Assembly: GCA_965217585.1 (NCBI GenBank)
Contig: OZ244561.1
Coordinates: 5,792,001 to 5,856,000, forward strand
From: Candidatus Latescibacterota bacterium
Lineage (GTDB): Bacteria > Latescibacterota > UBA2968 > UBA8231
Length of the DNA: 64,000 nt
Direction of reading: 5' to 3'
Below are positions 35,783-54,755 of this stretch, piece by piece. Each line of letters begins with the position of its first letter. The stretch's first letter is position 1. Position numbers and translations under genes: made by a program. The notes under the pieces were generated by a model that ran no database searches, was not told where the DNA came from, and was given only the letters and a program-made list of their open reading frames with translations.

Positions 35783-37612
35783 GTGAGTGAGCGGATAAGT
35801 CGGCTATCTACCCTTGTAAGTCTCCTGCCGCGTTTGCTGGCGTTTATTTGGCGAACCAGCCCGTTCCTCACCTCTGTTGCCGTGCTGCTGGCGATCGGTA
35901 ATGCCGCAGTCGTTCCTTCCCAGATTTGGCTTACTAAGGTCATAATCGATCAGATCGCCGAAAACGTATCTTCAGCTATAGAAGGCAGCTATGCGCTAAC
36001 CAACTTTGTTCTCCCAGTCGCTGGTATCGTTGGCATTTGGATACTTGGCGTAATTACTCAATCTCTTGCCGTGCATGTCCGGCGGCTTCTTGGCCAGCGG
36101 AGTAGCCACCGGGCACGAATGCAGGTGTTTGCCAAGATGGCGGCGTTGGACCCGGCGCTCCTTGAAACTCCTGCTGTGCATGACTCATTCAACAATGCAC
36201 TGGAGGAAACAGAGCAGGTTCACGAGACAGCGTTCTTTGTGTTCGGTTGGATTTCTGATCTGTTGTCCTTGGTTGCAATAATCGGACTGCTCGCACATAT
36301 ACATCCTGGGGCGGTCGTGGTGATCATCCTCACTGCTGCCCCTGGAGCAATTGCACAGGCTGGCTTTCTCGCCCATTACTACAACATAGTTCGCGGAAGA
36401 TCTGAACTACGTCGCCGGGTCCAGTACCTTGGCGACCTCTTATCGAACGCGCCAGGGCTCCGTGAACTAAGGCTCTTTGGGCTAATAGAATACTTGTTAG
36501 ATCAGTATCGCCGATTGTGGAAAGTACAACATGCTGATGACCGCAACCATTGGCTGCGCCTAGGTCGGACCGATTTGCTTTATGGTTTATTGTCTGTTGC
36601 CGGCACTCTGGCAATTTGGTGTTACGCAATCTTCCGTGGTCTCATGGGCATGATCACCATCGGCGACGTTAGCTTGGCCTTCCAAGCTGCCGAGCAAGGA
36701 CGCTCCCGTTTCAACAGTGCTTTTGGTAGCGGCGCTCGGGGTTTTGAGCGCCTATTGTATGCGTCGAACCTTTTTGAGTTCCTGGATCGGGAATGGGAAG
36801 ATGCTGAAGGAAGACTCCAGTCCCTAGGCACAAAAGGTGTTGCCATTCCTAAGCCCATCCAAAAAGGGATCGAATTCCGCGACGTATCGTTTTGCTATCC
36901 AGGGTCTAATGAGTACGTGCTGCGCAATATTTCCTACCATCTTCCCGTCGGGCATACGACGGCTATCGTCGGTCCTAATGGAGCTGGCAAGACGACGCTA
37001 ATTAAGCTGTTGGTTCGACTATACGATCCAACCGAGGGGGCGATTCTGGTAGATGGAATAGACCTGCGCGAGGTCGAACCCGAGGCGTGGTGGCGTCATG
37101 TGAGTGTTATCTTCCAAGACTTCCAGCGCTACAATCTATCTGCACGGGAAAACATCGGCTTTGGCGAATTGCAGCACTTGCATGACGACGATAAACTCAT
37201 GCAAGCAGCACGCCTTGCTGGAGCTGAGACGCTGATACAACAGTTCCCGAGGGGACTTGACACCATGTTTGGCCGCATGTTCTCCGACGGGATCGAAATT
37301 TCCGGCGGGGAGTGGCAGCGCATTGCCCTTAGCAGAGCGTTTATTCGGGATGCACAAGTAATTGTATTGGACGAGCCGACGGCAGCGCTCGATGCTTTCA
37401 CCGAGCAGGCAATATACGAAGGATTCGCGCGAGCGATTGTCGGCAAAACAGGGTTGTTGATCTCGCACCGATTTCCCACTGTTCGCATGGCGGACAGTAT
37501 TCTCGTTCTAGAGGATGGGCAACCCGTTGAACATGGAACGCACGAGCACCTCATTTCGACAAACGGCCTCTATGCCGAGATGTTCACAACTCAAGCAAAT
37601 CAATACAGGTAG
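35783..37612 (+). CDS. ABC transporter, fused permease/ATPase
   Basis: TM domain, GPNGAGKTT, ISGGEWQRIALSRA, VLDEPT, ISHR; lower GC than upstream gene. Confidence 0.93.
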   Translation: MSERISRLSTLVSLLPRLLAFIWRTSPFLTSVAVLLAIGNAAVVPSQIWLTKVIIDQIAENVSSAIEGSYALTNFVLPVAGIVGIWILGVITQSLAVHVRRLLGQRSSHRARMQVFAKMAALDPALLETPAVHDSFNNALEETEQVHETAFFVFGWISDLLSLVAIIGLLAHIHPGAVVVIILTAAPGAIAQAGFLAHYYNIVRGRSELRRRVQYLGDLLSNAPGLRELRLFGLIEYLLDQYRRLWKVQHADDRNHWLRLGRTDLLYGLLSVAGTLAIWCYAIFRGLMGMITIGDVSLAFQAAEQGRSRFNSAFGSGARGFERLLYASNLFEFLDREWEDAEGRLQSLGTKGVAIPKPIQKGIEFRDVSFCYPGSNEYVLRNISYHLPVGHTTAIVGPNGAGKTTLIKLLVRLYDPTEGAILVDGIDLREVEPEAWWRHVSVIFQDFQRYNLSARENIGFGELQHLHDDDKLMQAARLAGAETLIQQFPRGLDTMFGRMFSDGIEISGGEWQRIALSRAFIRDAQVIVLDEPTAALDAFTEQAIYEGFARAIVGKTGLLISHRFPTVRMADSILVLEDGQPVEHGTHEHLISTNGLYAEMFTTQANQYR

Positions 37613-37628
37613 GGATTGTACCACTAAC

Positions 37629-37679
37629 ACGACCGTGGCGGAGATCGCCCAATGCATCGCCGATTGCTACCTTTACTGA
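37629..37679 (+). repeat. Displaced second copy of the 3' end of gene 33814..35769
   Basis: 46/51 identical to 35719-35769; TVAEIAQCIADCYLY* vs TVAEIVQCVADCYLY*. Confidence 0.9.
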
Positions 37680-37690
37680 AGGAGGGAAAC

Positions 37691-38677
37691 ATGACTGAGC
37701 AAAATAATGCACTGTCCCAGGAAGAAATGGATTTTAAAGCATGGCAAAGGGCCGCCTGGGAAGAGGTTGAGCAGTTCCGCGAGACGGCAGAGGATTATTT
37801 TGGTGAGGACAACCCCCAACATCGACTCGCCGCAGAATTTTTCCAGATGTATCTGGAGAAGAGGCCTTCAGAGATAGCCACAAAGGCTTTGTCCAATGCT
37901 TTCACCATGTGGGGAAATCTGAAGGGCGTCAGTGACCAAGTTCAAGCGGCCCTCAAGCACATTTCTTATACCGAAGATGTGTGGGATGAAGTCAAGTATG
38001 GTTTGTGGAACAGTTCCGCACGTGATGGCCGAGAAAAAGAAGCAATTCTCCTATTGGAGGAATTGGTCGAAAAGGTCGTTCCCTTGAAGAGTCGATCGTC
38101 CTTGCTGTGCACTTTAGCCGATATTTGGGAACTCGAAGGTGAGACGGGAAAAGCTCGTCGAGGATTTGAACAAATCATCGCATGGGATGCTTCTGAACGG
38201 CATGTAGATCACGCCCGAGGACATCTGTACGAGCTTGACACTTTAAACGTCGGACAGTTGGCCCCTCAATTCAGGTTGTCCGATATAGATGGCAATCACA
38301 TAGATCTTGCAGATTATCAAGGTAAAGTCGCGGTTTTGCATTTTTGGAGTACAACCTGTAGCGGGTGTAAATTTATTTACCCTTCTCTGCGCAACATTGC
38401 CCAGGAGTATTCTGAGGACGAGGTAGCCCTCATTGGTATATCAGATGATATAGACTTTGATGCTCTTCGTGCTGCGATAACGGAAGAGCAATTCACGTGG
38501 CCTCAGATATGTGAAGGCAATGGCTGGCAAGATACGGTTTTTAAGCTCTACAATGTGGATAGAATGCCTATCGAGTATATCATTGATCGAGGTGGAAAGA
38601 TAGCCTTTAAATTCGGGGGCGGGGGCAAAGGTAGCGGTGAAGAGCTTGAAGAAGCAGTGCGATCTCTCGTGATTTGA
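37691..38677 (+). CDS. TlpA/redoxin-family protein with helical N-terminal domain
   Basis: GQLAPQF, LHFWSTTCSGC (CxxC), YNVDRMPIEYIIDRGG; AGGAGG RBS. Confidence 0.85.
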   Translation: MTEQNNALSQEEMDFKAWQRAAWEEVEQFRETAEDYFGEDNPQHRLAAEFFQMYLEKRPSEIATKALSNAFTMWGNLKGVSDQVQAALKHISYTEDVWDEVKYGLWNSSARDGREKEAILLLEELVEKVVPLKSRSSLLCTLADIWELEGETGKARRGFEQIIAWDASERHVDHARGHLYELDTLNVGQLAPQFRLSDIDGNHIDLADYQGKVAVLHFWSTTCSGCKFIYPSLRNIAQEYSEDEVALIGISDDIDFDALRAAITEEQFTWPQICEGNGWQDTVFKLYNVDRMPIEYIIDRGGKIAFKFGGGGKGSGEELEEAVRSLVI

Positions 38678-38693
38678 TGAGGTGCAGTGTCAG

Positions 38694-38765
38694 CGTCGTG
38701 GCTCATCAGGGCCAGCCCACCCTCTCCGGTGCCCAGCTTGCCGACGATGGAGAGCTTGGCCACGC
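38694..38765 (-). repeat. Copy of an internal argE segment
   Basis: 71/72 identical to 48661-48732 (VAKLSIVGKLGTGEGGLALMSHD). Confidence 0.92.
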
Positions 38766-38821
38766 TCGCCGCATGCCCGCCGACACGCTCTGCCCGCTAT
38801 TGTCGGTAGCATCCCATTCCA

Positions 38822-39871
38822 CTACACGTAGCGCCCCGGGAGCTGGTGTTTGGCAACGAGGGAGCGGACAGATTGCCCTACCACGTTGAACGGATTCGGG
38901 AAGTTATCCGCCAGTGCAAAGGCGGCTGGATTGGCCTTGCCCGCTGCGCCGAAGAGATCGCCAAAGCTCAAGGCCGGGTTGACGGTGATAGAGAAGGTCA
39001 ATGTGGCGGCGGCTCCTGCGCTGTCTTGCGCCGTGTAGGTGATCTCGACGGCCCCATCGGTGGCGGCTGTGGGCGTGCCCGAAATCGTCCGCGTGGCCGC
39101 GTCAAACGACAGGCCAGTAGGCAAGCCTAAGACGCGGTACGTTACCTCGCCTTCACCGCCCGTAGCTTCCGGCAATACCAGCGCACTAATCGCCGTACCA
39201 GCGGTGTATGCTTGGTCTTCGACCTCTTCGGCGAAACCGAAGGCCAGCTCTCCATCGTCCTCTTCGCCATCGTCCATCTCGCCGTCGGAATCGGCCGTCG
39301 CTTGACCGATGGCGGTAAAGGTTTCGGGTTCAAGCCCCTCAACGGTAGCCGTAACGGTGTTGGTCCCCGGATCGCTCCCCAGCGTCAGCGTGCTTCTGGC
39401 TCGACCATTGGCATCGGTGGTGGCGGTGGTGGCCGAGAGCGTCCCTCCACCGGCCGTGACCGAAAAGGTGACGACCGCCCCGGCAAAGGCCGACCCGTTT
39501 TGATCCAACACGGAAACGACGAATGGCTTGGCCAACGCCGCGCCGACAGTGCCTTCTTGTTCATCGCCGGAGACTTTCGTCAAGGTATGGGGCATGGCCT
39601 GCTCGACGGCGGTTATCGTCTGTCCGCCAGTCCACTCAGATAAATCCCACAGTCGTACTATGTAAGATGAATTCTCTGCCAAAAATCTCATGTCGGAAGA
39701 AAAATCCAATTCCTCAATCCGCCCGACCGGCGGGAAGCTGACGATAGGCTTTCTTGTAGCCACATCCCATAGCTTGACCGATGAACCCCCGATCGTACTG
39801 GCTTGACCGGTTCCTCCCTTCACACCATCTAAATCAACCCATCTTGTCTGCGACGCCGACGCGGACGCCAA
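38822..39871 (-). pseudogene. Truncated paralog of the WD40/Ig protein (WD40 remnant, Big_1 domain, He_PIG-like Ig domain, truncated C-terminal domain)
   Basis: 39280-39650 closely duplicates 41073-41443; LPTGLSFDAATRTISGTPT; ends shortly after ADNFPNPFN. Confidence 0.75.
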
Positions 39872-39906
39872 AAACCTGCCGTCTATAAGTAGCCTCCGCT
39901 CTATGT

Positions 39907-42900
39907 TTACCTTAGCAGGGTAAATTTTTGGGCAAAACGGCCTTCAGGGGTTGTCAACCGATAGAGATAAACGCCGCTGGCCCAAGCCGAGGCGTCCATA
40001 GATATCGTGTGATAGCCAGCCGCTTGAAACCCTTCGTGCAGGACCGCCACTCGTTGTCCGTTAAGGGTGAAGACCTCCAGTCGAATATCAGAGGCGGTTG
40101 GCAACGTATAAGAAAGGATCGTCTCGCTGTTAAAGGGGTTGGGATAGCTCGGGTTGAGCGTCGTCGTGGCTGGTATGCCGGTGTCTTCTTCGACATTGAC
40201 CTCATATTGCTGCACGACCGCGTCTGTATCGTAGTCGATGAGCAGGATCTTTGTTCGCCCTGCTTGGCACGCTTTTACATGCAGGCTCCAGCCATCTCGG
40301 CGCCCCCTTGTGGGTCTATCGTTGCCTTCGGCTGGACAGTAGGCTCTGGAGGGCACCTGTTGGCCGCCGGCGATCTCTATGGCCGGATCGGAGCCGGACG
40401 GGTTGGCTCTCACCAGCACGCTGTCGAGGTTGGTGTGCACTGTAAATGTTTTCCACGCTGGATCGTCGGCATAGAATTCGACCTCAGACGGATCGGGCAC
40501 CAGCCATGCTTGGGGCTCGCTGGCCGAATCATTGTCGATGATTTTGATATTGATCCGAGCTTGGTGTCCACTCGACGAAGTAGCCTGCACCGCGAAGGCC
40601 CTATCCCCATCCGCCGTCGTGTTGTCCTTGGGCGTCAGGGTAAGCTGCGCCGTGCCCGTTCGCTGGCCTTTTGCAATGGTGAGGGTTTCTGGAAATGTCG
40701 CGTCGAAGTCCTCACCGCGCTTGGCTGTCTTGCCTTGTGTTGGAGAGACAAGGGCGAGTGTGATCGTCTCGTTAGCCGCCACGGCTTTGTCCAACGTCAC
40801 GGTCAGCGTGATGGTCGTTGCCTGCCCGTCGTCCTCGCGGACCGAATCATGGCTTGCGGATATACCCTCGAGCGCAACCGTGGCCGTTGGCTGCTCCTCG
40901 GACTCGGGTTGATCCTCGCCGGAGGCCTCGTCATCGGCTAGCTCGCCATCGTCCTCGCTATCAGCCACCTCGTCCTCGGAATCGGTGGTTGGCTGCTCCT
41001 CGGACTCGGGTTGATCCTCGCCGGAGGCCTCGTCATCGGCCAGTTCGCCATCTTCCTCGCCCGAAGCCTCTTCGCCGTCGGAATCGGTGGTCGCTCTTCC
41101 GATGGCGGTAAAGGTTTCGGGTTCAAGCCCCTCAACGGTAGCCGTAACGGTGTTGGTCCCCGGGTCGGCCCCCAGCGTCAGCGTGCTTTTGGCTCGGCCG
41201 TTGGCATCGGTGGTGGCGGTGGTGGACGACAGCGTCCCCCCGCCAGCGGTGACCGAAAAGCTGACGACCGCCCCGGCAAAGGCCGACCCGTTTTGATCTA
41301 ATACGGAAACGACGAATGGCTTGGCCAATGGCTCGCCGACCGTGCCTTCTTGTCCATCGCCGGAGACTTTCGTCAAGGTATGGGGCATGGCCTGCTCGAC
41401 GGTGGTTATCGTCTGCTCGACGGTCCACTCAGAAACATCCCATAGCCGAACCCTTTGATCGCTTGACCCGACGGCCAGAAGGGCCCCGTCGGGAGAAAAC
41501 GATACATCAGAGAGAAAGCCCGGATTCGCGAAGGTGGTGGCAAGCTGCCTGCTGGCCACGTCCCACAGCCGGACATGGCCCTTTGACCCGACGGCCAGCA
41601 GGGCCCCGTCGGGAGAAAACGACAGCGAACTGCCCCAACTCTCAGGCTGGAGGGTGACCTCTTGTCCGGTGGCTACGTCCCACAACTGATTGAAATCTCC
41701 TGAGGTGGCCAGCAGGGTGCCGTCGGGAGAAAACGATACATCAGAGATATAGATATAATCGCCCCTAGGCTGGAAGGTGTCGACTTTTTGCCTGCTGGCT
41801 ACATCCCACAGCGTGACCGCGTCCTTGTTCTCTCCTGCCGCCTCTGCGATGGCCAGCAGGGTGCCGTCGGGAGAAAACGACAGTGACCTGACCCAATCCG
41901 CTTGGAGGGTGGCGACCTGCTGTCTGCTCACCACGTCCCACAGTGAGACCGCGTTCTCTCCTGATCCCCCAATAGCCAGCAGGGTGCCATCGGGAGAAAA
42001 CGCCAACTTAAAATCCCAACTCCCAGGCTGGAGGGTGGCGACCTGCTCTCTGCTCGCTACGTCCCACAGCGAGACCTGCTCCTCTGCGATGGCCAGCAGG
42101 GCTCCGTCGGGAGAAAACGACAGCGCGGTGCTCCAATACTCAAGCTCAAGGGTGGCCACCTGCTGTCTGGTGGCTACGTCCCACAGCCGGACCGTAGGAA
42201 TAAGTTCCTCTGAGGTGGCTAGGAGGGTGCCGTCGGGAGAAAACGATGCCGATCTGATATACGCTGTATGGTCGAGGGTGGCGATGTGGTATGATGAAGC
42301 TTTCGAAAGCCCAATACTCGCGCCGTGGGTCACCTCCCCATCTGTATCAACTACCTGAATAGACAGGGAATGAACCTCAGGATCTGAAGGATCCCGACGA
42401 TAGGGGGGAATCGAGACATCATACTCGAATTCGACGATGGCGTCTTTTTCACCGTCCAATCCACGGCATGCTGCCAATCCTCCCAGTCCGGCGGCGCCGC
42501 TGCTTTCTTTTCTTTCCACGTCAATCAGGAGCACCTGATGAAGCCCTTCCGCATCGCTGACCTTGAATCGGACGGAGATGATGGTTGATCCGGCCGGATA
42601 GTCCGACGGCGAAATCATTTGGATGGTGGATGGGTCGCTGAGGGTTCCCCCTCCGAAGACACTACGACTGAGGCTCGTTTCTCCTCCAAGGGATATATCA
42701 GAATTAAAGTAGGGGTGCACGGACAAAAATTCGGCGGCGCACGCCGACAGTCGATCTGGGTTGCCGCCATACGACATGATGTAGGCATCGTCGCGGAAGT
42801 CGTGCCACAAGCCGAAAGTATGCCCAAGCTCATGGGCTATTGTGCTAAAGTGAAGGCTACTAGGAACCAACGTAATTCCGCCACGTTTGCCAAAATCATT

Positions 42901-43463
42901 ATTTACTCCTCCGGCCTTATAACCATCTACATCAATTGTGCCTGTACTATTGTCAATGACGATGAGGTAATCATTGGCCAAGACATCAAATTGAAGCGGA
43001 CCTTCGCCAAAGAATATCTCGTCAAGCACCTCTATAGTAGTGTTGTTATCATAGTGCCTATGGGATGCTGCCCATCGACTCGATGCACCAGCGGCTCGCC
43101 TTGGGCATCGGTTTCAATGCGGAAGGTTGTGTTGCCGTAGCCATGCGCTTGCATCTGCTCGGCATAAAAGGTCTGAACCCGGCGCATCATCGTTTTCATT
43201 TCATCAACCACTTCTTGACGATACGGACGGTCATTGGGCAAGAAATAGATCATCCGCACCGTGCGCTCCTCACCCACGTTCCGATCGGCCAGCCGCTTGC
43301 CAGCAGAGAGGGGGTGATCGCGCTGCCACCGCTCGTAATCGAACGGCAAGCAGAAATGCACGCTATCAGCCGGCGAGGGCGACGCATGGGCCACCGCCAG
43401 CGGCGAAAGAATCAGGCCGATTAACGCGCAAAGGGGGTACGATGTGAAGCAATACCGTTTCAT
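39907..43463 (-). pseudogene. Secreted Zn-metalloprotease/WD40/Big_1 protein with T9SS-type/FlgD-like C-terminal domain, split by a 1-bp frameshift near 43060
   Basis: Signal peptide at 43463; HELGHTFGLWH; 7 SFSPDG..LWDV repeats; SYPNPFN tail; adding one base after GQHP joins the two ORFs (GQHPDRHYDNNTTIEVLDE). Confidence 0.8.
40886..41055 (-). repeat. Intragenic acidic tandem repeat, 102-bp period
   Basis: DGELADDEASGEDQPESEEQPT occurs twice. Confidence 0.85.
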
Positions 43464-43856
43464 CAATCTTCTCCTTATAAGGTTGAGGATTTTACGCTGG
43501 CACATGAGGTGTGATGCAGATGAGAAAATGCCTTAGCGTGTTGAAGAGATAGTAATCGTGTGCAATTAGGCACAGAAAAGGCAGCAAGCGTTTGTAAATA
43601 AAGAACAAACGTGTATCGCAGGTCGCACAACAAGGGCGACCTCCGGCTGGGGCCACCGTACTAAGCGCTGTTTTATCAGATGTCGGGGTATGTACCATTG
43701 TCTATTTTCGGCCATGAACACACAAACGTTTGTGCTTGACAGCAGTATATATTAGGGCAATCAACCAAGATGTCAAATAAATAATTGACGTTACGCAGAC
43801 TTATGTAGTGTCTGCCGCCTTGCTGCCCTGCCTGTCGTCATTTGTATGTTGCAAAA

Positions 43857-44040
43857 GCCTTTCAGATTGGCCAATCTGAAAGGCCTGCGTGAGGGGCGCG
43901 TCGTCCGTCATTGGGTGAGCAGGCACGACAGTGCCCACGGCACCGTGCGGGAGTAAGACACCCCTCACGCTAGGTTGTCGCTCCGAACAGATACAGGGGC
44001 CTTGGGCCCGTATTACAAGTGTGGAGGACAGCACCCATTA
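43857..44040 (+). ncRNA. IS110 bridge RNA
   Basis: 5' hairpin 43857-43884; target loop with CGTCATT (43906-12) and GCGGGAGT (43947-54); donor loop with ACAGATAC (43987-94) and TACAAGT (44014-20), matching target and IS ends. Confidence 0.85.
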
Positions 44041-44059
44041 TAACAGGGAGGCTACCAGC

Positions 44060-45001
44060 ATGAAAGTCGTTGCCGGTATAGACGTAGGAAAAAGCAGTCT
44101 GGACGTGTCGGTGTCGGCGGGTCCGGTGCGTCGATTCGACAACGCCCCCGCGGGCCTTTCGGCCCTGGTGGGCTGGTTGGAGCGCGAGGGGGCGACCCAC
44201 GTGGTGTGTGAATCGACCGGGGGCTATGAGCGGGAAGTGGTGCGACGGTTGCGGAGCACGGCATGGTCGGTGCACATAGCGCACCCCAACCGAGTGCGCC
44301 ACTTCGCGCGGGCGGCTGGCCGCCAAGCCAAGACCGACGCGCTGGACGCGCAGATGCTGTCGCGGTATGGGCAGGTATTCGAGGTGCCTAGCTCGGTGGC
44401 GGCGGCGGCGGACAGTGAGGTCCTGCAAGACCTGCTGCGCCGACGCAAGCAGTTGGTGGACCAGCGCGTGCAGGAGCGCCATCGGCTGGACCAAGGACGG
44501 ACCGAAGCCGCCCGCACCTCTACCCAGCGGCACCTCCAGTGGCTGGATGAAGAGATCGGACGGTTGGAAGAGGAATACCGCAAGGCGTTGGAAAACAGCG
44601 GCGAGTTGTCCGAGTCCGCGGCCCTGTACCGGAGTGTGCCGGGCGTGGGCGAGCTGACCGCGGCCACGCTGGTAGTGTATCTGCCGGAGTTGGGGCAGTA
44701 CCGTGGAAAGGAGTTGACCTCGCTGGTGGGACTGGCCCCGTGGTCCAACGACAGTGGGCGCCAGCAGGGGTATCGCTCGATCCGGGGCGGACGGGGAACC
44801 GTGCGTAGGGTGTTGTACCTGGCCGCCTTGTCGGCGATACGCTACAACGACGACCTGAGCCGTTTCTATCAGGGACTGCGCCAGCGGGGCAAGACGGGCA
44901 AGGTGGCGGTGGTGGCGGTGATGCGCAAGCTGCTGCTGTTGCTGAACGCCATTGCCCATCGAGGAACGCCCTGGGTGGAACACCAGGCCCCAGCAGGGTA
45001 G
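44060..45001 (+). CDS. IS110 family DEDD recombinase/transposase
   Basis: GIDVGK, CESTGGYE, KTDALDA, SVPGVG, GLAPWSNDSG, VAVMRKLL. Confidence 0.95.
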   Translation: MKVVAGIDVGKSSLDVSVSAGPVRRFDNAPAGLSALVGWLEREGATHVVCESTGGYEREVVRRLRSTAWSVHIAHPNRVRHFARAAGRQAKTDALDAQMLSRYGQVFEVPSSVAAAADSEVLQDLLRRRKQLVDQRVQERHRLDQGRTEAARTSTQRHLQWLDEEIGRLEEEYRKALENSGELSESAALYRSVPGVGELTAATLVVYLPELGQYRGKELTSLVGLAPWSNDSGRQQGYRSIRGGRGTVRRVLYLAALSAIRYNDDLSRFYQGLRQRGKTGKVAVVAVMRKLLLLLNAIAHRGTPWVEHQAPAG

Positions 45002-45030
45002 AAAAGGGCTGGACGCAGAACACAGATACT

Positions 45031-45133
45031 CCCGCGAAAGAACGTCACCCCGTGCCCCGACACGGGGCGGGAATCCAGCCCAGCGCCCTAGCCTCAAACG
45101 GCCTTTCTGGATGCCTGCTTTCGCAGGCATGAC
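45031..45133. repeat. REP-like palindrome doublet (GTCATTCCCGCGAAAGCGGGAATCCAG family)
   Basis: Right half with nested hairpin CCCCGTG..CACGGGG (45031-45078) and inverted copy CTGGATGCCTGCTTTCGCAGGCATGAC (45107-45133). Confidence 0.8.
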
Positions 45134-45328
45134 ACCGGGACCGCACAGGCACCAAGCGGGCGGAAGAGGCTGCCCTAAGAAGACAGAGGCTGCGTAACAT
45201 CAGTCAATAATTTTTCGCTGGAGTCCAATTTCTGAAAATTCGAGGGCGAGACGCCCTCAATCCCAGATGCTTTGATGAAACGCGGCGGCAACAATCCTCT
45301 TCACTTGGGCTTTACCCAGTTTCGGCTC

Positions 45329-45384
45329 CTACACGCAGGTTTGCGGCGGCCCGTTAGCTTGAGCGCCGTGCGGACCAGCGGGGC
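45329..45384 (-). repeat. Internally deleted copy of the argE 3' region
   Basis: 45338-45384 identical to 47931-47977 (47 bp), fused to CTACACGCAG = argE last 10 bp including the stop. Confidence 0.9.
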
Positions 45385-45732
45385 CTTTATCTGCGTGCCG
45401 GGGTTCCACCAGCGCTTAGAGGCGTGGCTCGACGCACTGCCGGAGGGGCCAATCCCCGCGAGCAAGACCTGCTGGCTTTGGGAGCGCATCACATCGGTGC
45501 CGAAGCGGGCGACTTGGTTATCTGGCGCACTACCCTGCCGCGCGTGGCGCAGTACATCACCATGAGTCCAGCAGGCGAGGGTGAAGAGGCGCGGCGGTTG
45601 CGCACGGACTTTTGGCAGCGGCGGTTGTCTGGGTTAGGGCGCTACGCTGAGGAACGCGAGTACTACGAAGAAAAGACGGCTGAGTTGACGAGTGTGGGGC
45701 GGAAGCTGGCTGGGGTGGATCCTTGGGATTGA
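45372..45732 (+). pseudogene. PhyH-family dioxygenase C-terminal relic
   Basis: AFICVPGFHQRLEAWLDALP / AEAGDLVIWRTTLP-RVAQYITM..LTSVGRKLAG; frameshifted, distal His segment missing. Confidence 0.65.
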
Positions 45733-45851
45733 GGGAGGGAGAAGCGCAACTACGACTTGTCTCGGTTTTTTAGCATAAAGGCCATGACCGCTAGGACCGC
45801 AATAAGCATGACTAAGCTGCCAACGACGGTGATTTTTAGCAAAAGTCTATA

Positions 45852-46711
45852 GAAGCTGTTGAGTTAAAAACGTATCTTTGTAAGTTATTTGGTACCATAG
45901 CCCTATTGCTGTAGGAGGATTCTGTTATGCCAGGGTATCCAAGTGACTTGACGGATGAAGAATGGGCGTTGATCGCCCCTTTTTTTGACCGCCCCGATCC
46001 TCGGGGTAATCCGGGTCGGTATGAAAAACGCGATGTGGTCAATGCCATTTTGTATGTGCTCAAAGGGGGCATCCCGTGGCGGATGATGCCGCTTGATTTT
46101 CCGCCTTGGGATACGGTCTATGATCATTTTCGTCGCTGGAATAAACGCGGCGTGTGGGAGCAAGCCTTGGACTTTCTCAATGAGCAAGCGCGCCTAAAGC
46201 AAGGCAAGAAGCCACAGCCCACCTATGCGCTTTTGGATTCGCAATCGGTCAAAACGCAGTATGCTAGTCAGGATCGAGGCACCGATGGGGGAAAAAAAGG
46301 TCAAAGGCCGTAAACGCCACCTCGCCACCGATACGCTGGGCAATATGCTCGCGATCCAAGTACATGCAGCCAATGTAGCCGATACCAGCCAAGGCTGGGA
46401 AGTGTGTGATCGCGTCGCAGAAAAGTATGATTCGGTCGAAGCCTTCTGCGGCGACCAAGGCTATCGCGGCACTACGGTTGAATTCGTCGAGAACCTGCTG
46501 GGGTTACGACTCGACATCACCTCGAAACCAGCGCAAGGATTCCAAGTGATTCCCAAACGGTGGATTATCGAACGAACCTTTGCTTGGTTGGGTGGATTTC
46601 GGCGCTTGGCCAAGGACTTTGAAATCCTCACCCAATCTGCAGAAAATATGATCCGGATTGCCATGATTAAAATTACCGTCGCTAAATGCATCTGAATAAC
46701 TCAACAGCTTC
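45852..46711 (+). mobile_element. IS5-family element (IS1031/IS427-like), intact
   Basis: Perfect TIR GAAGCTGTTGAGTTA / TAACTCAACAGCTTC with TA duplication. Confidence 0.92.
45927..46695 (+). CDS. IS5 transposase, two ORFs joined by a probable -1 programmed frameshift
   Basis: YPSDLTDEEW, DFPPWDTVY, DSQSVK; GGGGGAAAAAAAG near 46287-46299; KGRKRH, DQGY, KRWIIERTFAW..RRLAKDFE. Confidence 0.9.
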
Positions 46712-46998
46712 TAAGGCTCTAGCGATGGCTCGTAGACCAATAAGAACGATACTCCGATGGCAAGAACGATGATCCATGTTGCTAGACGTAGGCGATGAAT
46801 GGGTTTGGGCAGGTTGCGCCTGAAGAGGGAAGGAATGCATTCAGCAGCTATATAAAAAGCTGTTCCTAAGACTATTTCTAAGATTAGAAGCGACATAAGC
46901 GTCTCGTAGTGTTCTACCTGACGTGTGTGTCGGCTGGCGTTCTTGCAAGAAGCGGGTCGTGTGATCGTCGTACCCAACAGAACAGCGCTTCAACTATC

Positions 46999-47076
46999 CC
47001 TCTACACGCAGATATGCTGGATGAAGCGGGCGTAGAGATCGACGCTGGTGCGCAATTGGTCGGTTTTGATCCATTC
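46999..47076 (-). repeat. Displaced second copy of the argE 3' end
   Basis: 73/78 identical to 47750-47827; EWIKTDQLRTSVDLYARFIQHICV*. Confidence 0.92.
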
Positions 47077-47140
47077 CATCCCGCGAGCGGCGCGTGATGG
47101 ACCAAACGAATCGCATAGAAAATCGTCTCAAGACACCCTC

Positions 47141-47494
47141 TTAGAGTGCTAACACTTCGCGGAGTAACCTATCCACTTCTGCTTGCAATTGTGGACCAAG
47201 ATGGCCGAGACGGCGGGTAATGACCGACCGTTCTACTGTAGCCAATTTATGCATCCGGAAGACAGACATAACGCGCAAGCCTGTCAGGATAAATTCCGGG
47301 TGGTTGGGCTCAATGGTATAATCGGTGGGAGCGAGCGTACCGCGCACAACGCTAGAAATCGCCACGAGTACCATGTCGTGGCCGAATTGCCCTTGGGACA
47401 CGATTACTGCGGGGCGAAGGGAGGCACCAGTCAAATCGGTAAATGGAAACCGCGTCAGCACCACATTACCGCGTGCGAGCGTTGGGTGCGTCAC
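47141..47494 (-). CDS. PemK/MazF family toxin
   Basis: RGNVVLTRFPFTDLTGASLRPAVIVS, TGLRVMSVFRMHKLAT; GTGA overlap with upstream gene. Confidence 0.88.
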   Translation of the reverse strand: MTHPTLARGNVVLTRFPFTDLTGASLRPAVIVSQGQFGHDMVLVAISSVVRGTLAPTDYTIEPNHPEFILTGLRVMSVFRMHKLATVERSVITRRLGHLGPQLQAEVDRLLREVLAL

Positions 47495-47721
47495 ACCGGT
47501 TCTCCGTCTTCGGAGGAGTAAATATCTTCCCCTTCCTCTTCCCAAAAGCCAAATGCGCCACTTTGTTCGACCAAACGCATGATATCCCATGTTGGCACAT
47601 CATCTTCCTGCCTTTGCACGGTAATCTCTTCATAGCGCTGTGCCAATTCCACCAGCCGTTCTAATTCGCTCTGTGGAACCAGCACTTTCTCACCGATACA
47701 TTGGATGTGAATTGTTGTCAT
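47491..47721 (-). CDS. Putative antitoxin
   Basis: 76 aa, acidic GAFGFWEEEGEDIYS tail, coupled to the toxin. Confidence 0.75.
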   Translation of the reverse strand: MTTIHIQCIGEKVLVPQSELERLVELAQRYEEITVQRQEDDVPTWDIMRLVEQSGAFGFWEEEGEDIYSSEDGEPV

Positions 47722-47752
47722 TTCGCCTCTCAGGGTTTTGAGAAGACAACCT

Positions 47753-48883
47753 CTACACGCAGATATGATCAATGAAGCGGGCGTAGAGATCGACGCTGGC
47801 GCGCAGTTGGTCGGTTTTGATCCATTCGTTGGCGGTGTGGGCTTGGGCAATGTCGCCTGGGCCGAGGACGATCATTTGTTTCATCTTCTCGACAAAAGCC
47901 ATGCCGTCGGTGCCGTAGGCCACCGTGGTGGGTTTGCGGCGGCCCGTTAGCTTGAGCGCCGTGCGGACCAGCGGGGCGTCCACCGCGGTATAGAGTGGCT
48001 CGCCGCGATGCTTGAGCGCGAAGTCGAGGCCGTGCTTTTCCGCGCTTTTGCGGCTTTTGTCGATCAAATCATCGACGTCGATGCCGGGCATGGGGCGGTA
48101 GTTGAGGGTGCAGATGCTCTGGGCGGGGGAGATGTTGGTGGCGCGGTTGTGATCGTTGATGCCGATGCACCACTCGGAATGCGGCGGTGCGAATTCCTCG
48201 TTGCGGTAGCGGCGCGCGCTGAGCACCCGCTCGTTGAATCGCTTCATCTCCGCGAGAAAGGGAATCATCTTGAGGTTCGCGTTGATGCCCTTCAAGGTGC
48301 TGGTGTGCGCGGGGCGTCCCTTGGCGGTGACTTGGATGGCGAGCGAGCCTTTGTGGGCGTGGACGACGCGGAGGCTGGTGGGTTCGCAGATGATGCCGCA
48401 GCCGGTGCTGGCCTCGGCAAAGAGCTTGGAATGGGCCGTGACCTTTTGCGCGCCGACGCCGTGAACCTCTTCGTCGGCTGTGACGACGATGTAGAGCGGG
48501 GCAGTGAGATCGGCGGCCTTGAAGCGGGCGGCCGCGCAAATCGAAGCGGCAAGAGGGCCTTTCATGTCGCAGGAACCGCGGCCGTAGAGCTTGCCGTTGG
48601 CCTCGTAGGGGTCGTAGGGATCGCGGTGCCAGCCGTCGGCGGGATTGGCGGGTACGACGTCGTCGTGGCTCATCAGGGCCAGCCCGCCCTCTCCGGTGCC
48701 CAGCTTGCCGACGATGGAGAGCTTGGCCACGCCCGCCTCATCTGTGTAGGGTACCTCTTCTATTTGGAAACCAAGCTGGTCTAAGACTCCAGCTATGTGT
48801 TGGGTGACTTCGACGTTGCTGGTTTGGCTTTCCGAGGGATAGGCGACTATTGCCTTGGTCAGTTTGACGACATCGAGTTTCAT
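47753..48883 (-). CDS. argE: M20 family metallopeptidase, acetylornithine deacetylase-like
   Basis: SHDDVVP, GKLYGRGSCDMKG, ADEE, CEPT, AHKG, GPGDIAQAHTANE. Confidence 0.85.
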   Translation of the reverse strand: MKLDVVKLTKAIVAYPSESQTSNVEVTQHIAGVLDQLGFQIEEVPYTDEAGVAKLSIVGKLGTGEGGLALMSHDDVVPANPADGWHRDPYDPYEANGKLYGRGSCDMKGPLAASICAAARFKAADLTAPLYIVVTADEEVHGVGAQKVTAHSKLFAEASTGCGIICEPTSLRVVHAHKGSLAIQVTAKGRPAHTSTLKGINANLKMIPFLAEMKRFNERVLSARRYRNEEFAPPHSEWCIGINDHNRATNISPAQSICTLNYRPMPGIDVDDLIDKSRKSAEKHGLDFALKHRGEPLYTAVDAPLVRTALKLTGRRKPTTVAYGTDGMAFVEKMKQMIVLGPGDIAQAHTANEWIKTDQLRASVDLYARFIDHICV

Positions 48884-48918
48884 CGCAGATTCGCTTTCGC
48901 CGAAGGGGTAGGTGGCAC

Positions 48919-48947
48919 AAGGTACAACTTTGGCAGAAGGCTATCAA
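48919..48947 (-). promoter_or_regulatory. Candidate sigma70 promoter for argE
   Basis: TTGATA-17 bp-TACCTT. Confidence 0.4.
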
Positions 48948-48994
48948 GGGCGTTGACAGCCCAGCCAAAAGGCGGTATGAATAGGCGGGCGAGA

Positions 48995-49035
48995 AGCAAC
49001 AAAGCGGCCCGCCTCCAAAGAGCGGAAGCGGGCCG
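48995..49035 (-). terminator. Probable intrinsic terminator after the DUF5069-like gene
   Basis: CGGCCCGC.TCC / GGA.GCGGGCCG stem followed by a T-rich tract on the minus strand. Confidence 0.6.
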
Positions 49036-49058
49036 GCAGACGAGTGGGACAGGTCCTT

Positions 49059-49493
49059 TTAGCTCAGGGCGTCGTGCAGTTCAGTCCAGTCGTCGAGGTT
49101 GTTGAGGTTGACGGCGTCGAGGATGCTGCCGTCGTCGCTGAGGCCAGCGGCGTCGAGGACGCTGCCGCGGGTCTCGTCGTCGTGGTTGTAGCCGCGGATG
49201 GCGGCGTTGGAAGCGTCGATCTCGCTCTGCGGAATGGAGCCGCCGCGCTGGGCCTTGACCCAGTTTTCAAATTCGGTATAGCTGGCCTTGTTGTCCTTGA
49301 CATAGTCCACGGCTGCGTCGCGGTCGATGCCGAGGCCGTCGAGAACCATCTGATCGAAGCCCGCGCCGCATTCATCGTAGCCTTCGGACAATTCGCCGGC
49401 CGCGCTCAGACGCAGCTTAGACCACAGGCGGGGCAGGTGAATCGCGCCGAGCGGCCCGGCGATATCCGAACTGACGTTAGGTATAATGGCCAT
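49059..49493 (-). CDS. DUF5069-like protein
   Basis: GPLGAIHLPRLWSK, GFDQMVLDGLGID, FENWV; AGGAGG RBS; strongly biased codons. Confidence 0.7.
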   Translation of the reverse strand: MAIIPNVSSDIAGPLGAIHLPRLWSKLRLSAAGELSEGYDECGAGFDQMVLDGLGIDRDAAVDYVKDNKASYTEFENWVKAQRGGSIPQSEIDASNAAIRGYNHDDETRGSVLDAAGLSDDGSILDAVNLNNLDDWTELHDALS

Positions 49494-49535
49494 GAGGTTC
49501 CTCCTATAGAGAATGGGTTGGGTAAACGGCCTACA

Positions 49536-49564
49536 ACAGTACGGTCGCTCCGGCCGGTTGTCAA
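49536..49564 (-). promoter_or_regulatory. Candidate sigma70 promoter
   Basis: TTGACA-17 bp-TACTGT. Confidence 0.5.
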
Positions 49565-49574
49565 ACGGATAGCA

Positions 49575-50678
49575 ATGGACAAAATACGCTTTGGTGTCAT
49601 TGGGGCTGCTGGCCGCGGAAGCGGCTTTATCCCCACCCTACTGGCCCATCCAGCCACGGAAGTTGCCGCGCTGTGCGACATCCGCCGGGAAGAGGTCGAG
49701 CGCCACGCGGCTGAATTGGGCATTGAACAGGTCTTTACAGACGCCGGCGAAATGCTCGATGACGGGGGGGTGGACGCGGTCGTCGTGGGTACGCCCATGC
49801 CGTGGCACGCGCCTCAGGCCATCGCGGCCTTGGAGCGCGACATCCACGTGCTCAGCGAGGTGACGGCCGGGGTGTCGGTCGAGGAGTGCCGCGATTTGAC
49901 GCGAGCAGCGCGGCGCAGCCGAGCCGTCTATATGATGGCCGAGAACTACGTGTACACCAAGTCCAATACACTGGTGAACGCACTGGTCGAGCGCGGCTTT
50001 TTCGGCGAGCTGTACTACGCCGAAGGGGCCTATATCCACGAACTGAAACAGCTCAACGAGACCACACCTTGGCGGCGGCGCTGGCAGACGGGCGTCAATG
50101 GCTGCACCTATGCCACGCACAGCTTGGGGCCGGTGCTGACGTGGTTTGCCAGACAGCGGGTGGTGGCCGTCTGCGCCGTGGGCACCGGGCACCACTACCT
50201 AGATCCGCGCGGCGCTTTGTACGAAATGGAGGACTCGGTGACCATGATGTGCCGCCTCTCGGGCGGTGGGCTGGCGCATATCCGGGTCGATATGCTCTCG
50301 GACCGGCCGCACCACATGGTGCACTACGCGTTGCAGGGGACCGATGGCGCGTACGAGTCGGCCGACGGGTTTGCGGCCGCGGCCAAAATCTGGCTGCGCA
50401 GCCGCAGCGCGCAGCCGCGCTGGGAGCCTTTGGAGGCCCTAGAGGAACTTTTGCCTGATTATTGGCAGCACCCGCCCGCAGAAGCCCTCGCCGCTGGACA
50501 CGGCGGCGGCGACTATTGGGAAGTACAGGACTTTGTCGCGGCCATCCGCGAGGAAAAGGCGCCGGCCATTGGCATCGACTTGGCGATGGACATGACCTTG
50601 CCCGGCCTCGTCAGCCAACAGTCGCTCGCCCAAGGGTCGGCCTGGGTGGCCGTGCCCGATTCACGCAACTGGACTTAA
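49575..50678 (+). CDS. Gfo/Idh/MocA family oxidoreductase
   Basis: IRFGVIGAAGRG, GTPMPWH, VLSEV, YMMAENY, YATHSLGP, GHGGGDY. Confidence 0.9.
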   Translation: MDKIRFGVIGAAGRGSGFIPTLLAHPATEVAALCDIRREEVERHAAELGIEQVFTDAGEMLDDGGVDAVVVGTPMPWHAPQAIAALERDIHVLSEVTAGVSVEECRDLTRAARRSRAVYMMAENYVYTKSNTLVNALVERGFFGELYYAEGAYIHELKQLNETTPWRRRWQTGVNGCTYATHSLGPVLTWFARQRVVAVCAVGTGHHYLDPRGALYEMEDSVTMMCRLSGGGLAHIRVDMLSDRPHHMVHYALQGTDGAYESADGFAAAAKIWLRSRSAQPRWEPLEALEELLPDYWQHPPAEALAAGHGGGDYWEVQDFVAAIREEKAPAIGIDLAMDMTLPGLVSQQSLAQGSAWVAVPDSRNWT

Positions 50679-50690
50679 AGGAGCGAGACC

Positions 50691-52274
50691 ATGCACAAGC
50701 CTAAAATCATGTTTTACCACGACGGCCGGCACCCGCTGATTTACATGTACGAGCCGCCGATGCAGAAGGAGGAGTACGAGCAGGGGGTGGACGAGCTGTT
50801 GGGCACGCCGGTCGAAGCCATCATGTTTTGCCTCGGCGATGGCCGCACCGTGCTGCACGACACGGAAGTAGGGGAGCTGTGGGGCCACAATGTGAAGCGG
50901 TGGCCGCATTTGATCTTTCGCCGTGCCCACCAAAATGCCCGCGATCTAATCCGCAAGGGGCACGACCCTCTGCGCCTGATTTGCGACCGCGCCCACCAGT
51001 ACGGCAAGCAGGTCTATCCGACGCTGTTGGTGCAGCAGGGCCGGGGGCTGCGGGAAGAGGACGTGCGCTGCTCGGACTTCCGCTTTGACAACGCCCATCT
51101 CGAAATCGGCGCCCAAGACGATGTACCCGCCGACTTTCCCGGTCACACCTGCCTCGACTTCAAGCACCAAGAAGTCCGCGACGAGCGCTTTGCCCTGATC
51201 GCCGAGACCCTAGAAAAGTATCCGGTCGATGGCTTTGAGCTGCAGATGAACTACCAGCCTTACTACTTCCATCCAGACGAGGTCGCCGCTGGCCGCGAGA
51301 TTATGACTGAGTGGGTGCGTCAGGTGCATCGCGCCGTCAAGCAGAGCGGGAAGCAACGCGAATTGGCCATCCGCATTCCCTACAGTATCGAGGGGTGCTA
51401 TGCCGTCGGCATGGATGTCGAAGCATGGTTGCGCGAAGGGCTAGTCGATGCGCTAATCGGCCAAGCGTTTTCCGGCCCTGAACTGCTGGATTCGACCGTT
51501 GATTTCCGGCCCTTGGTTGCGGCGGCCGAAGGCACGGATTGTCGGGTGCATGCGGCCTTGCAAAGCCACGTGGACTCGGATCGTCTGGGGGAGGCGACCA
51601 TTGAGATGGTGCGCGGGGCCGCATGCAACTACTGGGCGCAAGGCGTCGATGGCCTGTACTTGGCGCACTGGTTTGGGAACTGGCCGTACCAGGCCTCCTT
51701 CTACGAGAAGCTGCGAGAATTGCCCTATCCAGAGGTCATGGCCGCCCGCGACAAAATCTACTACATACCAACCGTGACCGGGCGCTACCCCAATCCCACC
51801 ACCGAGCCGGGGACGACCATGCAGCTACCGGCCTATTTGCAAAAGGGCCACAAGGCTTCCATCACCCTGGCGGTCAGCGACGATCTGCGGCGCTGGGCCA
51901 AGGTCGGCCGGATCCACGAAGTGTTGCTGCGGGTGCGGGTGATGGGTCACACCGAGCGCGACCGGCTGAAATTCTACCTCAATGGCCGGGAATTGCCCGC
52001 CAGCCTGTTGCGCAAGATCAACGAATTGTACCGGATGTCAGCCCCGCGCTATCGCACGGGATCGGGGTATTGGTATGCGTTTAAGCTGGACGCTAAACAC
52101 TGGCCGAAAAAAGGGAACAACACGCTCGCAGTCGAATTGGTGCGGCGGGACGCTCAGGCGTTGCCGGAGATTTTTGTGCGCGATGTGGAGTTAGATATCA
52201 AATACCTGATGGGGCGCAATTTTCATCGCGGTCAAGACTTGGATCTGGGGCCAAGCGAACCGTCGGGGCTGTGA
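50691..52274 (+). CDS. TIM-barrel glycoside-hydrolase-like protein (GHL10-like)
   Basis: FYHDG, GHDPL, LDFKHQEVRDERF, YPVDGFEL, DVEAWLREGLVD. Confidence 0.7.
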   Translation: MHKPKIMFYHDGRHPLIYMYEPPMQKEEYEQGVDELLGTPVEAIMFCLGDGRTVLHDTEVGELWGHNVKRWPHLIFRRAHQNARDLIRKGHDPLRLICDRAHQYGKQVYPTLLVQQGRGLREEDVRCSDFRFDNAHLEIGAQDDVPADFPGHTCLDFKHQEVRDERFALIAETLEKYPVDGFELQMNYQPYYFHPDEVAAGREIMTEWVRQVHRAVKQSGKQRELAIRIPYSIEGCYAVGMDVEAWLREGLVDALIGQAFSGPELLDSTVDFRPLVAAAEGTDCRVHAALQSHVDSDRLGEATIEMVRGAACNYWAQGVDGLYLAHWFGNWPYQASFYEKLRELPYPEVMAARDKIYYIPTVTGRYPNPTTEPGTTMQLPAYLQKGHKASITLAVSDDLRRWAKVGRIHEVLLRVRVMGHTERDRLKFYLNGRELPASLLRKINELYRMSAPRYRTGSGYWYAFKLDAKHWPKKGNNTLAVELVRRDAQALPEIFVRDVELDIKYLMGRNFHRGQDLDLGPSEPSGL

Positions 52275-52290
52275 GCCGACGGACGAAAGG

Positions 52291-54720: not shown

Positions 54721-54755
54721 AGCTGCCATCCCACCATAAAACCGAAAGGAACCAC

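Follow-up and report, generated by a model that had tools for sequence, protein, structure and literature searches.

An argE-like gene and three of its fragments

We analysed a stretch of 64,000 bp, referred to here as the window (G000:C1:5792001-5856000), from the genome of Candidatus Latescibacterota bacterium, which is assembled as one contig of 7,323,734 bp. The coordinates of all fragments and elements are window positions unless marked as genome positions (G000:C1). The window contains an intact gene for an M20 deacylase that we call argE, together with three short fragments of this gene, A, B and C, that lie downstream of it and are separated by other DNA (Table 1). The name argE stays a best guess because the top NCBIfam match of the product, acetylornithine deacetylase (TIGR01892), scores 252 bits, under the curated equivalog cut-off of 297.7; the score for the ArgE/DapE subfamily model TIGR01910 is likewise below its cut-off (180 versus 217.6 bits). 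Orthologues with 91–96% amino acid identity are carried by 19 genomes of the same genus.

A blastn search with positions 47600–49050 against the whole genome returns, beyond the self match, exactly three strong argE pieces, all in direct orientation and at most 10 kb downstream of the gene. The fourth-best match is 33 bp long with an E value of 0.001, and a repeat search of 36000–52000 recovers the identical three pairs. Read outward in the direction of the gene, the pieces come in the order A, B, C, which bears out an earlier note on this DNA that had described three direct argE fragments stacked in this way. They start at codons 352 (A), 302 (B) and 48 (C) of the gene, and the ArgE residues matched by tblastn are 352–376 plus the stop codon for A, 302–318 for B and 50–74 for C. 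The 25 residues encoded by A differ from the live ArgE tail by two amino acids, and B lacks 168 bp internally (47763–47930 of the gene) between its 10-nt and 47-nt parts. A diverged second argE copy in the window was sought with tblastn of ArgE against 36000–47752, which gave just A, B and C.

As a random control, 300 genome segments of 1,131 bp were searched in the same manner; 13 had at least one nearby extra match and two had at least three. A tile scan of the whole genome found 72 clusters of neighbouring short repeats, six of them with at least three pairs, and among the 11 clusters listed the argE cluster alone combines three different parts of one gene. A triple repeat of 65–77 nt at 6.85 Mb, also found in the genome scan, proved to represent paralogous genes that share a conserved 5′ end; it is no attachment (att) site, and there is no tRNA there.

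Table 1 Features of the argE locus in window positions, from the redoxin gene to the intact argE. IS, insertion sequence; ORF, open reading frame; aa, amino acids.
Feature	Position	Strand	Details
Redoxin gene	37652-38677	plus	Points towards argE
Redoxin 3′ end plus 17 nt (rearrangement breakpoint)	38604-38695	plus	Inverted counterpart at genome 7107859-7107950
Fragment C	38694-38774	minus	argE codons 48-74; blastn match to 48661-48741, 78/81, E 1e-30; 71/72 over 38694-38765
Cargo between C and B layer	38775-43775	minus	Domains from Pfam
WD40/Big_1/He_PIG gene	38822-39871	minus
WD40 beta-propeller gene	39907-43029	minus	1040 aa
ORF	43032-43505	minus	157 aa
Repeated element of about 220 bp carrying IS110-family element	43776-45205		Flanks contiguous at three other genome sites
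IS110-family element	43833-45040; transposase 43931-45001	plus	Pfam DEDD_Tnp_IS110, Transposase_20
Downstream flank belonging to B layer (sp3)	45206-45328	not assigned	123 bp; ends in motif like ancestral spacer end
Fragment B	45329-45384	minus	10 nt (stop, last 3 codons) joined to 47 nt (codons 302-318); blastn match of 45338-45384 to 47931-47977, 47/47, E 1e-16
Second allele of ancestral downstream flank: phyH 3′ part and long spacer	45385-46998	plus	Collinear with G043
phyH 3′ part, ORF	45424-45732	plus	33-bp in-frame deletion
Long spacer, two pieces	45733-45849 (117 bp) and 46712-46998 (about 282 bp)		Split by IS5-family element
IS5-family element	45850-46711		Interrupts spacer; NCBIfam NF033580
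Small ORF in spacer	46711-46977	minus	88 aa
Fragment A	46999-47076	minus	Tail of an argE allele (final 25 codons, stop, 3 nt); blastn match to 47750-47827, 73/78, E 2e-26
Toxin–antitoxin cassette	47077-47749	minus	673 bp; between 78-bp direct repeats 46999-47076 and 47750-47827
MazF/PemK toxin	47141-47494	minus	Pfam PemK_toxin, E 4.6e-12
Antitoxin	47491-47721	minus	76 aa; start/stop overlap GTGA with toxin
argE-like M20 deacylase, intact	47753-48883	minus	376 aa; Pfam Peptidase_M20 and M20_dimer

The ancestral locus and its spacer

For comparison we used 30 other genomes of the genus, in 26 of which the argE locus was examined. The ancestral layout is asd, phyH, a short spacer and argE, with phyH and argE convergent. 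Eleven of the 26 loci run from asd through phyH and a spacer of 16–101 bp to the argE stop codon; in one more, G043, the spacer measures about 340 bp. Four loci carry spacer insertions of 0.7–3.1 kb, five have the asd flank without phyH, and in three (G019, G045 and G046) an unrelated flank begins directly at the argE stop. Two loci lie on contigs too short to classify, one of them (G014) with an antitoxin-like gene beside argE. The spacer inserts of G007, G013 and G008 consist of a type II restriction-modification pair (an N4/N6 methylase and a CfrBI-like endonuclease), accompanied in G013 by an IS200-like gene and an antitoxin-like gene; that of G005 is an IS fragment. The restriction-modification insert is AT-rich, and its copy in G007 lies at L024:12677-14952.

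On this comparison, the spacer behind argE is a genuine hotspot for insertions and breakpoints across the genus, as the earlier note had proposed, and thus a site that tolerates new DNA and is prone to recombination. The comparison of relatives that it suggested thus yields a hotspot and an ancestral layout, and no second stack: argE fragments are absent from all 26 loci, each of which has a single argE tail.

Flanks and alleles of fragments A and B

When the IS5-family element is removed, positions 45385–47076 are collinear with G043, where a long spacer lies between the phyH 3′ end and the tail of argE. A is thus the tail of an argE allele that has kept its native surroundings; at codon 352, where it is cut, it adjoins the toxin–antitoxin cassette. 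The phyH family was assigned through PF05721 on the full-length orthologue from G002. The genome also keeps a full-length phyH (copy 1) with a syntenic asd flank at genome 5612000-5627387, the interval to which the asd–phyH flank of at least 15 relatives maps. The phyH piece in the window (copy 2) differs from copy 1 at 32 positions, 23 of which are shared polymorphisms, with both states found among 13 relatives; five of the remaining differences are unique to copy 2, three are unique to copy 1 and one belongs to neither group. In a phyH tree the two copies are not sisters (with weak support), and the branch of copy 2 is of ordinary length. The window piece is a distinct allele and not a decayed copy of the full phyH. 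Because of this distinct allele, with its 23 shared polymorphisms among 32 differences, and of the different spacer type, we judge the added DNA to have come from another lineage.

The tail itself has a similar character, in that four of the five differences between A and the live tail are states present in relatives. Fragment B meets the interior of phyH at its right end, where the two share GGGGC (5 nt, extended to 8 nt by allowing a 1-nt gap). Beyond the stop codon, A and B each continue into a flank of their own, and each displaced end starts with an argE piece. The B flank, sp3, also contains a 37-nt GC-rich palindrome (45239-45275) that resembles repetitive extragenic palindromic elements and is multicopy in several genomes of the genus, with 28 matches in G007 and 13 in G043.

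The live gene offers little by which to order these alleles. Set against 15 relatives, argE has one site in 1,131 that is unique to this genome, and its closest relative switches between successive 60-bp windows. Judged by its sequence, argE belongs to a strongly mosaic, freely recombining gene pool that extends across named species. An attempt to trace donor tracts within argE through unique substitutions failed, with the single unique site available. Because the alleles of the genus recombine so freely, percent identity is no clock for the layers. The earlier note had observed that the distal pieces are more identical to argE than A is, and these figures hold; where it suggested that the latest event replaced just the extreme 3′ end, we explain them by the layers being different alleles from this pool.

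A chromosomal rearrangement joint at fragment C

The chromosomal REARRANGEMENT leaves the ancestral asd–phyH flank 212,363 bp away from argE. The intervening block (G000:C1:5627388-5839750, about 212 kb) takes in window positions 1–47750. What separates the gene from its ancestral neighbour is mostly relocated core chromosome and not cargo cassettes. The end of the block that carries the redoxin and ABC-transporter genes is 90–95% identical to loci that lie 0.75–1 Mb from argE in relatives, and in G010 and G002 the redoxin gene continues directly into DNA that lies at 7.107 Mb in G000. The left end of the block adjoins, in five of five relatives, DNA now at 7.108 Mb in G000. At its ends the 212-kb block is not a foreign island, both of them being core DNA located elsewhere in relatives.

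Three conserved adjacencies have been lost and three new ones formed, from which we infer a three-breakpoint rearrangement, equivalent to two overlapping inversions that share a breakpoint near the phyH–argE spacer. Both new joints retain the terminal 92 bp of the redoxin locus, as mutually inverted copies that are 91% identical and 1.3 Mb apart; the non-coding copy has three to four changes of its own. For the breakpoint between the left end of the block and the 7.108-Mb DNA, the spacers of the relatives have no match to the joint sequences of G000.

Fragment C has the rearrangement breakpoint directly on one side and the cargo directly on the other; its left joint shows 2 nt of microhomology. 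It may be what is left, at the inner end, of a long and old argE remnant that was hit by the inversion joint, or a patch copied from argE when that joint was made. The first is slightly favoured by the single clear difference between C and the live gene, which is a polymorphism common to four relatives; the second is favoured by the failure of blastn to find a complementary piece anywhere in the genome. Were C a remnant, junk DNA would have been a tolerated target, so that an inversion joint could land within it. The proposal in the earlier note of repeated insertions beside argE that push trimmed remnants outward, in a polarised stack, is therefore supported for A and B, which have native flanks of their own, but may not extend to C, which lies exactly at a large rearrangement joint and might be no cassette remnant at all.

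Variants of the locus in metagenomes

Public metagenome contigs from runs X6 and X7 match 46742–47604 and 47584–47960 with 0 differences, so that A and both of its joints are spanned and real. Whether contigs cross the fragment junctions, a check raised at the outset, is thus answered for A; for the B and C joints the assembly evidence is the single genome contig, and no public contig among the matches listed crosses them. Exact-match scans returned 0 matches for the C/cargo joint in metagenome contigs and 0 matches for the B/phyH joint in metagenome contigs and in genome contigs.

The same source contains variants of the locus. A form without the IS5-family element, with an empty site, occurs in three public runs, and a form without the IS110-bearing unit (43776–45205) in runs X6 and X10. 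One contig of run X10, at a depth of 57, joins 45325 to 47750, that is, sp3 to a complete argE tail, and covers at least 81 nt of either side; its depth is about five times that of window-type contigs. This joint corresponds to the predicted intermediate without the two inner layers and supports a layered history. The region occurs in runs from mixed communities that include several relatives, and many variant joints are seen in them.

Contents of the layers

The toxin–antitoxin cassette holds its two genes and no others, and has no second copy elsewhere in the genome. Its antitoxin part is 85–90% identical to loci elsewhere in six genomes of the genus. Five loci with related antitoxins were checked in other genomes, and two have repeats, of 54 nt and 77 nt respectively, whose copies are separated by about 1 kb. 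One of these is a toxin–antitoxin cassette cluster in G002 (L058, G002:C1:2030711-2034028), with a close antitoxin homologue beside a truncated mazF and 54-nt direct repeats 961 bp apart; the similar 77-nt pair is in G014 (L059).

The IS5-family element comprises two overlapping ORFs, which probably reflects a frameshift, and is about 84% identical to five or six other copies in the genome. The IS110-family element has a counterpart at genome 418441-419648 (99.9% identity), and intact copies of the repeated element of about 220 bp that carries it stand at three other genome sites. In the cargo between C and the B layer, the smaller WD40/immunoglobulin (Ig)-domain gene partly duplicates the 1040-aa gene (39242–39658 versus 41038–41451, 88%), and there is a tandem duplication of 102 bp at 40886–41089. 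Both WD40/Ig-domain genes are members of a family that is large and multicopy in the genus. The cargo's matches in the genus are partial and paralogue-like, and none adjoins argE; an apparent syntenic counterpart in G022 (77% match) proved to be a paralogous domain gene. Pfam and NCBIfam searches of the large ORFs between 35.8 and 50.7 kb found no integrase or recombinase family besides the IS110 and IS5 transposases. Elsewhere in the window, at 52288–54733, homology in G005, G001, G019, G010 and G022 jumps from about 52287 to about 54734, and G000 seems to hold about 2.4 kb extra.

Proposed serial displacement of the argE 3′ end

On balance, we favour an origin of the stack by serial displacement of the argE 3′ end, through additions that were anchored by homology and closed illegitimately, plus inversions. 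DNA from a related strain, with the same locus and other downstream content, would have been added at least twice and possibly three times. Each addition would have been anchored by homologous recombination inside argE, with the intact gene as the homology anchor, and its far end closed by an illegitimate microhomology joint falling inside the recipient argE. The pathway may have been homology-facilitated illegitimate recombination; alternatively, a single crossover with a circularised fragment would give an equivalent product. Every such event would rebuild an intact argE beside the new DNA and leave the old 3′ tail and old flank on the far side. Repetition would stack the tails outward: A (78 bp) behind the toxin–antitoxin cassette, B behind the second phyH allele and long spacer, and C, as a truncated remnant rather than filler, outermost. 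B would originally have measured about 225 bp and later have been shortened by 168 bp. By the logic of displacement the inner layers would be the younger ones. A separate three-breakpoint rearrangement would have put about 212 kb between asd–phyH and the stack, with one joint at the left edge of C. The fragments themselves are probably passive scars, not a device, and call for no new system.

Several points weigh against this history. It assumes that the organism takes up DNA, and no donor was found among the 30 genus genomes. None of these has the B-layer flank, of which the palindrome alone was matched, and none has the WD40 cargo or the toxin–antitoxin cassette beside argE. In the four loci tested, no direct repeats of note (≥18 nt) surround the spacer inserts of relatives, so duplication of the tail is not a general property of the hotspot. 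The history needs an additional 168-bp internal deletion for B; C has no native distal flank and would require an additional truncation of about 900 bp, with the piece complementary to it absent from the genome. The mosaicism of argE prevents donor tracts from being traced. The identity of B (47/47) and C (71/72) to the live gene is equally expected from local copying: relatives differ from the 47-site stretch of B at one to five sites, and because this part of argE is conserved the identity cannot decide between import and local copying. Lastly, the evidence for the X10 joint is one metagenome contig with a likeness of ≥90%, and the sequence between its two sides is recorded as ‘not known’.

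Alternative origins

It is unlikely, but would be the next explanation to consider, that the fragments arose by local events with no imported alleles. An insertion into the resident argE tail would then have been accompanied by a long target duplication, through staggered breaks that were filled in or through unequal sister exchange, and the copies would later have diverged or the live one been overwritten. The 78-bp repeats around a 673-bp cassette that lacks a mobility gene fit the ‘insertion with long target duplication’ in the cited passages of Furuta, Abe and Kobayashi (2010; PMC2853133), and the identity of B and C to the resident gene agrees with copying on the spot; the freely recombining pool would make later overwriting plausible. 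Against this, the second phyH and the long spacer cannot derive from the resident locus, given the other spacer type and the 23 of 32 shared polymorphisms, and states shared with relatives at four of the five differences in A would rarely come from random decay (by a rough estimate, fewer than 1 in 1,000).

Somewhat less probable again is that one or two replication-based template-switching rearrangements used argE patches as joint filler, an account that would apply mainly to C and perhaps to the two parts of B. The exact placement of C between breakpoint and cargo, with 2-nt microhomology on the left, suits such filler, as do the patchwork of 10-nt and 47-nt argE pieces in B, joined to the phyH interior at a microhomology, and the redoxin end duplicated at both rearrangement joints; inversion-linked duplication has been reported in Helicobacter pylori (via a citing passage in PMC4671568). 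Filler would not be expected to carry native flanks as long as those of A (about 1.7 kb) and B (at least 81 nt), nor does it account for the variant in which the B flank runs into a complete argE or for the polymorphism in C common to four relatives. C is the piece for which template-switch filler is most credible.

We think it improbable that the argE tail acts as a self-renewing, integrase-free capture point. Each addition rebuilds the anchor, so that the stack could keep growing and would record the order of transfers; on the same reading, units bracketed by the 78-bp repeats, such as the toxin–antitoxin cassette, could be looped out by RecA, and the resulting circles, equipped with a homing sequence, could enter argE anew in other strains.

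A still weaker candidate is a set of tandem islands integrated at the argE 3′ end by a site-specific recombinase, with replacement tails and with the recombinase genes lost later. Direct repeats of a gene tail on either side of an insert, with the gene restored, are the classic att pattern, and in tandem islands at tRNA genes the oldest unit is outermost, as it would be here. We regard this origin as very improbable: the ORFs scanned across 38.7–48.9 kb include no integrase or recombinase family besides the IS110 and IS5 transposases, the pieces have no common core, starting at codons 352, 302 and 48 with one joint within phyH, and the insertions of relatives lack repeats. A chimeric join of strain variants from a mixed sample, to which the mixed communities and many variant joints of the public runs lend some colour, is hardly credible in a genome that forms one 7.32-Mb contig and is matched with 0 differences by the X6 and X7 contigs across A and its joints, and would not produce microhomology joints or a diverged 92-bp duplicate 1.3 Mb away.

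Relation to known systems

The nearest published likeness to serial displacement of the argE 3′ end is the growth of rhs, cdiA and type VI secretion effector arrays; here and below the comparisons refer to the passages cited from each paper. Jackson et al. (2009; PMC2935791) describe the displacement of rhs tips, and Kirchberger et al. (2017; PMC5361080) propose homology-facilitated illegitimate recombination for growing type VI effector–immunity arrays; circular intermediates or homology-facilitated illegitimate recombination are the routes proposed for rhs, cdiA and type VI loci. As in those arrays, a constant upstream part serves as the anchor, incoming DNA would replace the 3′ end and no integrase is involved, and A, B and C are displaced 3′ ends that lie downstream in the same orientation and would age outward. 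Unlike the genes of the rhs type, argE is a housekeeping-type M20 deacylase, and its tails are near-identical alleles instead of alternative toxin tips with immunity genes: no tip-specific genes follow A, B or C, and there are no divergent tips with cognate immunity genes. The argE stack also differs in having three members only, mixed with IS elements and a rearrangement joint, and no apparent selective reason to keep the remnants.

The toxin–antitoxin cassette by itself resembles the insertions with long target duplication that were reported for restriction-modification systems. These were screened for with inserts under 20 kb, no other mobile element inside and direct repeats over 30 bp, and are small units without a mobility gene whose target is single-copy at the empty site; some published repeats overlap the 3′ end of a gene, and the cargo is of the addiction type (PMC2853133). 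Here the insert is 673 bp, the repeats are 78 bp (73/78) and the target is single-copy in 26 relatives. The likeness is limited in that the cargo is MazF instead of a restriction-modification system, the 5 differences between the repeats, over 78 positions, follow an allele-like pattern, and the restriction-modification inserts of relatives at this very spacer lack such repeats.

Homology-facilitated illegitimate recombination goes back, reportedly, to original papers on Acinetobacter and pneumococcus. Its descriptions in transformable bacteria (PMC3240628, PMC5361080) share with the present locus a one-sided homology, a microhomology joint at the opposite end and foreign DNA beside the anchor; the microhomologies here are the GGGGC of the B/phyH joint (8 nt with one gap) and the 2 nt of the redoxin/C joint. 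The process was defined experimentally there, whereas here it is read from scars, and the far joint here lies upstream of the homology end, so that part of the anchor is duplicated and recipient DNA is not deleted.

Integrons and clustered regularly interspaced short palindromic repeats (CRISPR) had been suggested as loose analogies for the polarised array. What stands of this is the geometry, in which units would be added at a fixed point with older ones outward; Kirchberger et al. themselves compare their arrays to integrons, with qualification (PMC5361080). The mechanism is another one, with microhomology joints, no recombinase in the ORFs scanned and no boundary repeat in common. ORF scans and the repeat search of 36000–52000 found no intI, attI or attC, no shared cassette boundary and no integron promoter logic. 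Nor is there a regular repeat as in a CRISPR-like array, the pieces being different parts of argE at distances of 0.7 to 6.6 kb, and an island borne by a recombinase finds no support in the absence of a recombinase from the scanned ORFs and of a common att core at the unit ends. The rearrangement recalls the inversion-associated DNA duplication of Helicobacter pylori (via the citing passage, PMC4671568), the 92-bp redoxin end being found inverted at both joints 1.3 Mb apart; that likeness concerns the neighbouring breakpoint, whereas the argE pieces are direct repeats.

Implications

Recombination scars of this kind are known; we regard the locus as a further example, not as a new system, found at a housekeeping-type gene and entangled with a chromosomal rearrangement. 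Jackson et al. predicted a pool of free circular tips for rhs genes (PMC2935791); should the argE tail after all be a capture point, such a pool would extend to ordinary genes. On the history favoured here, the locus is a natural record of accessory genes piling up behind a core gene without a dedicated recombinase. It would preserve the locus in two or three layers, drawn from different lineages, along with a microhomology joint that can still be read and a toxin–antitoxin cassette bearing a long target duplication; a joint of the chromosomal rearrangement would have landed in the junk DNA that resulted. This supports the existing ideas that recombination in flanking core genes maintains integration hotspots and that 3′-end displacement extends beyond polymorphic toxin genes.

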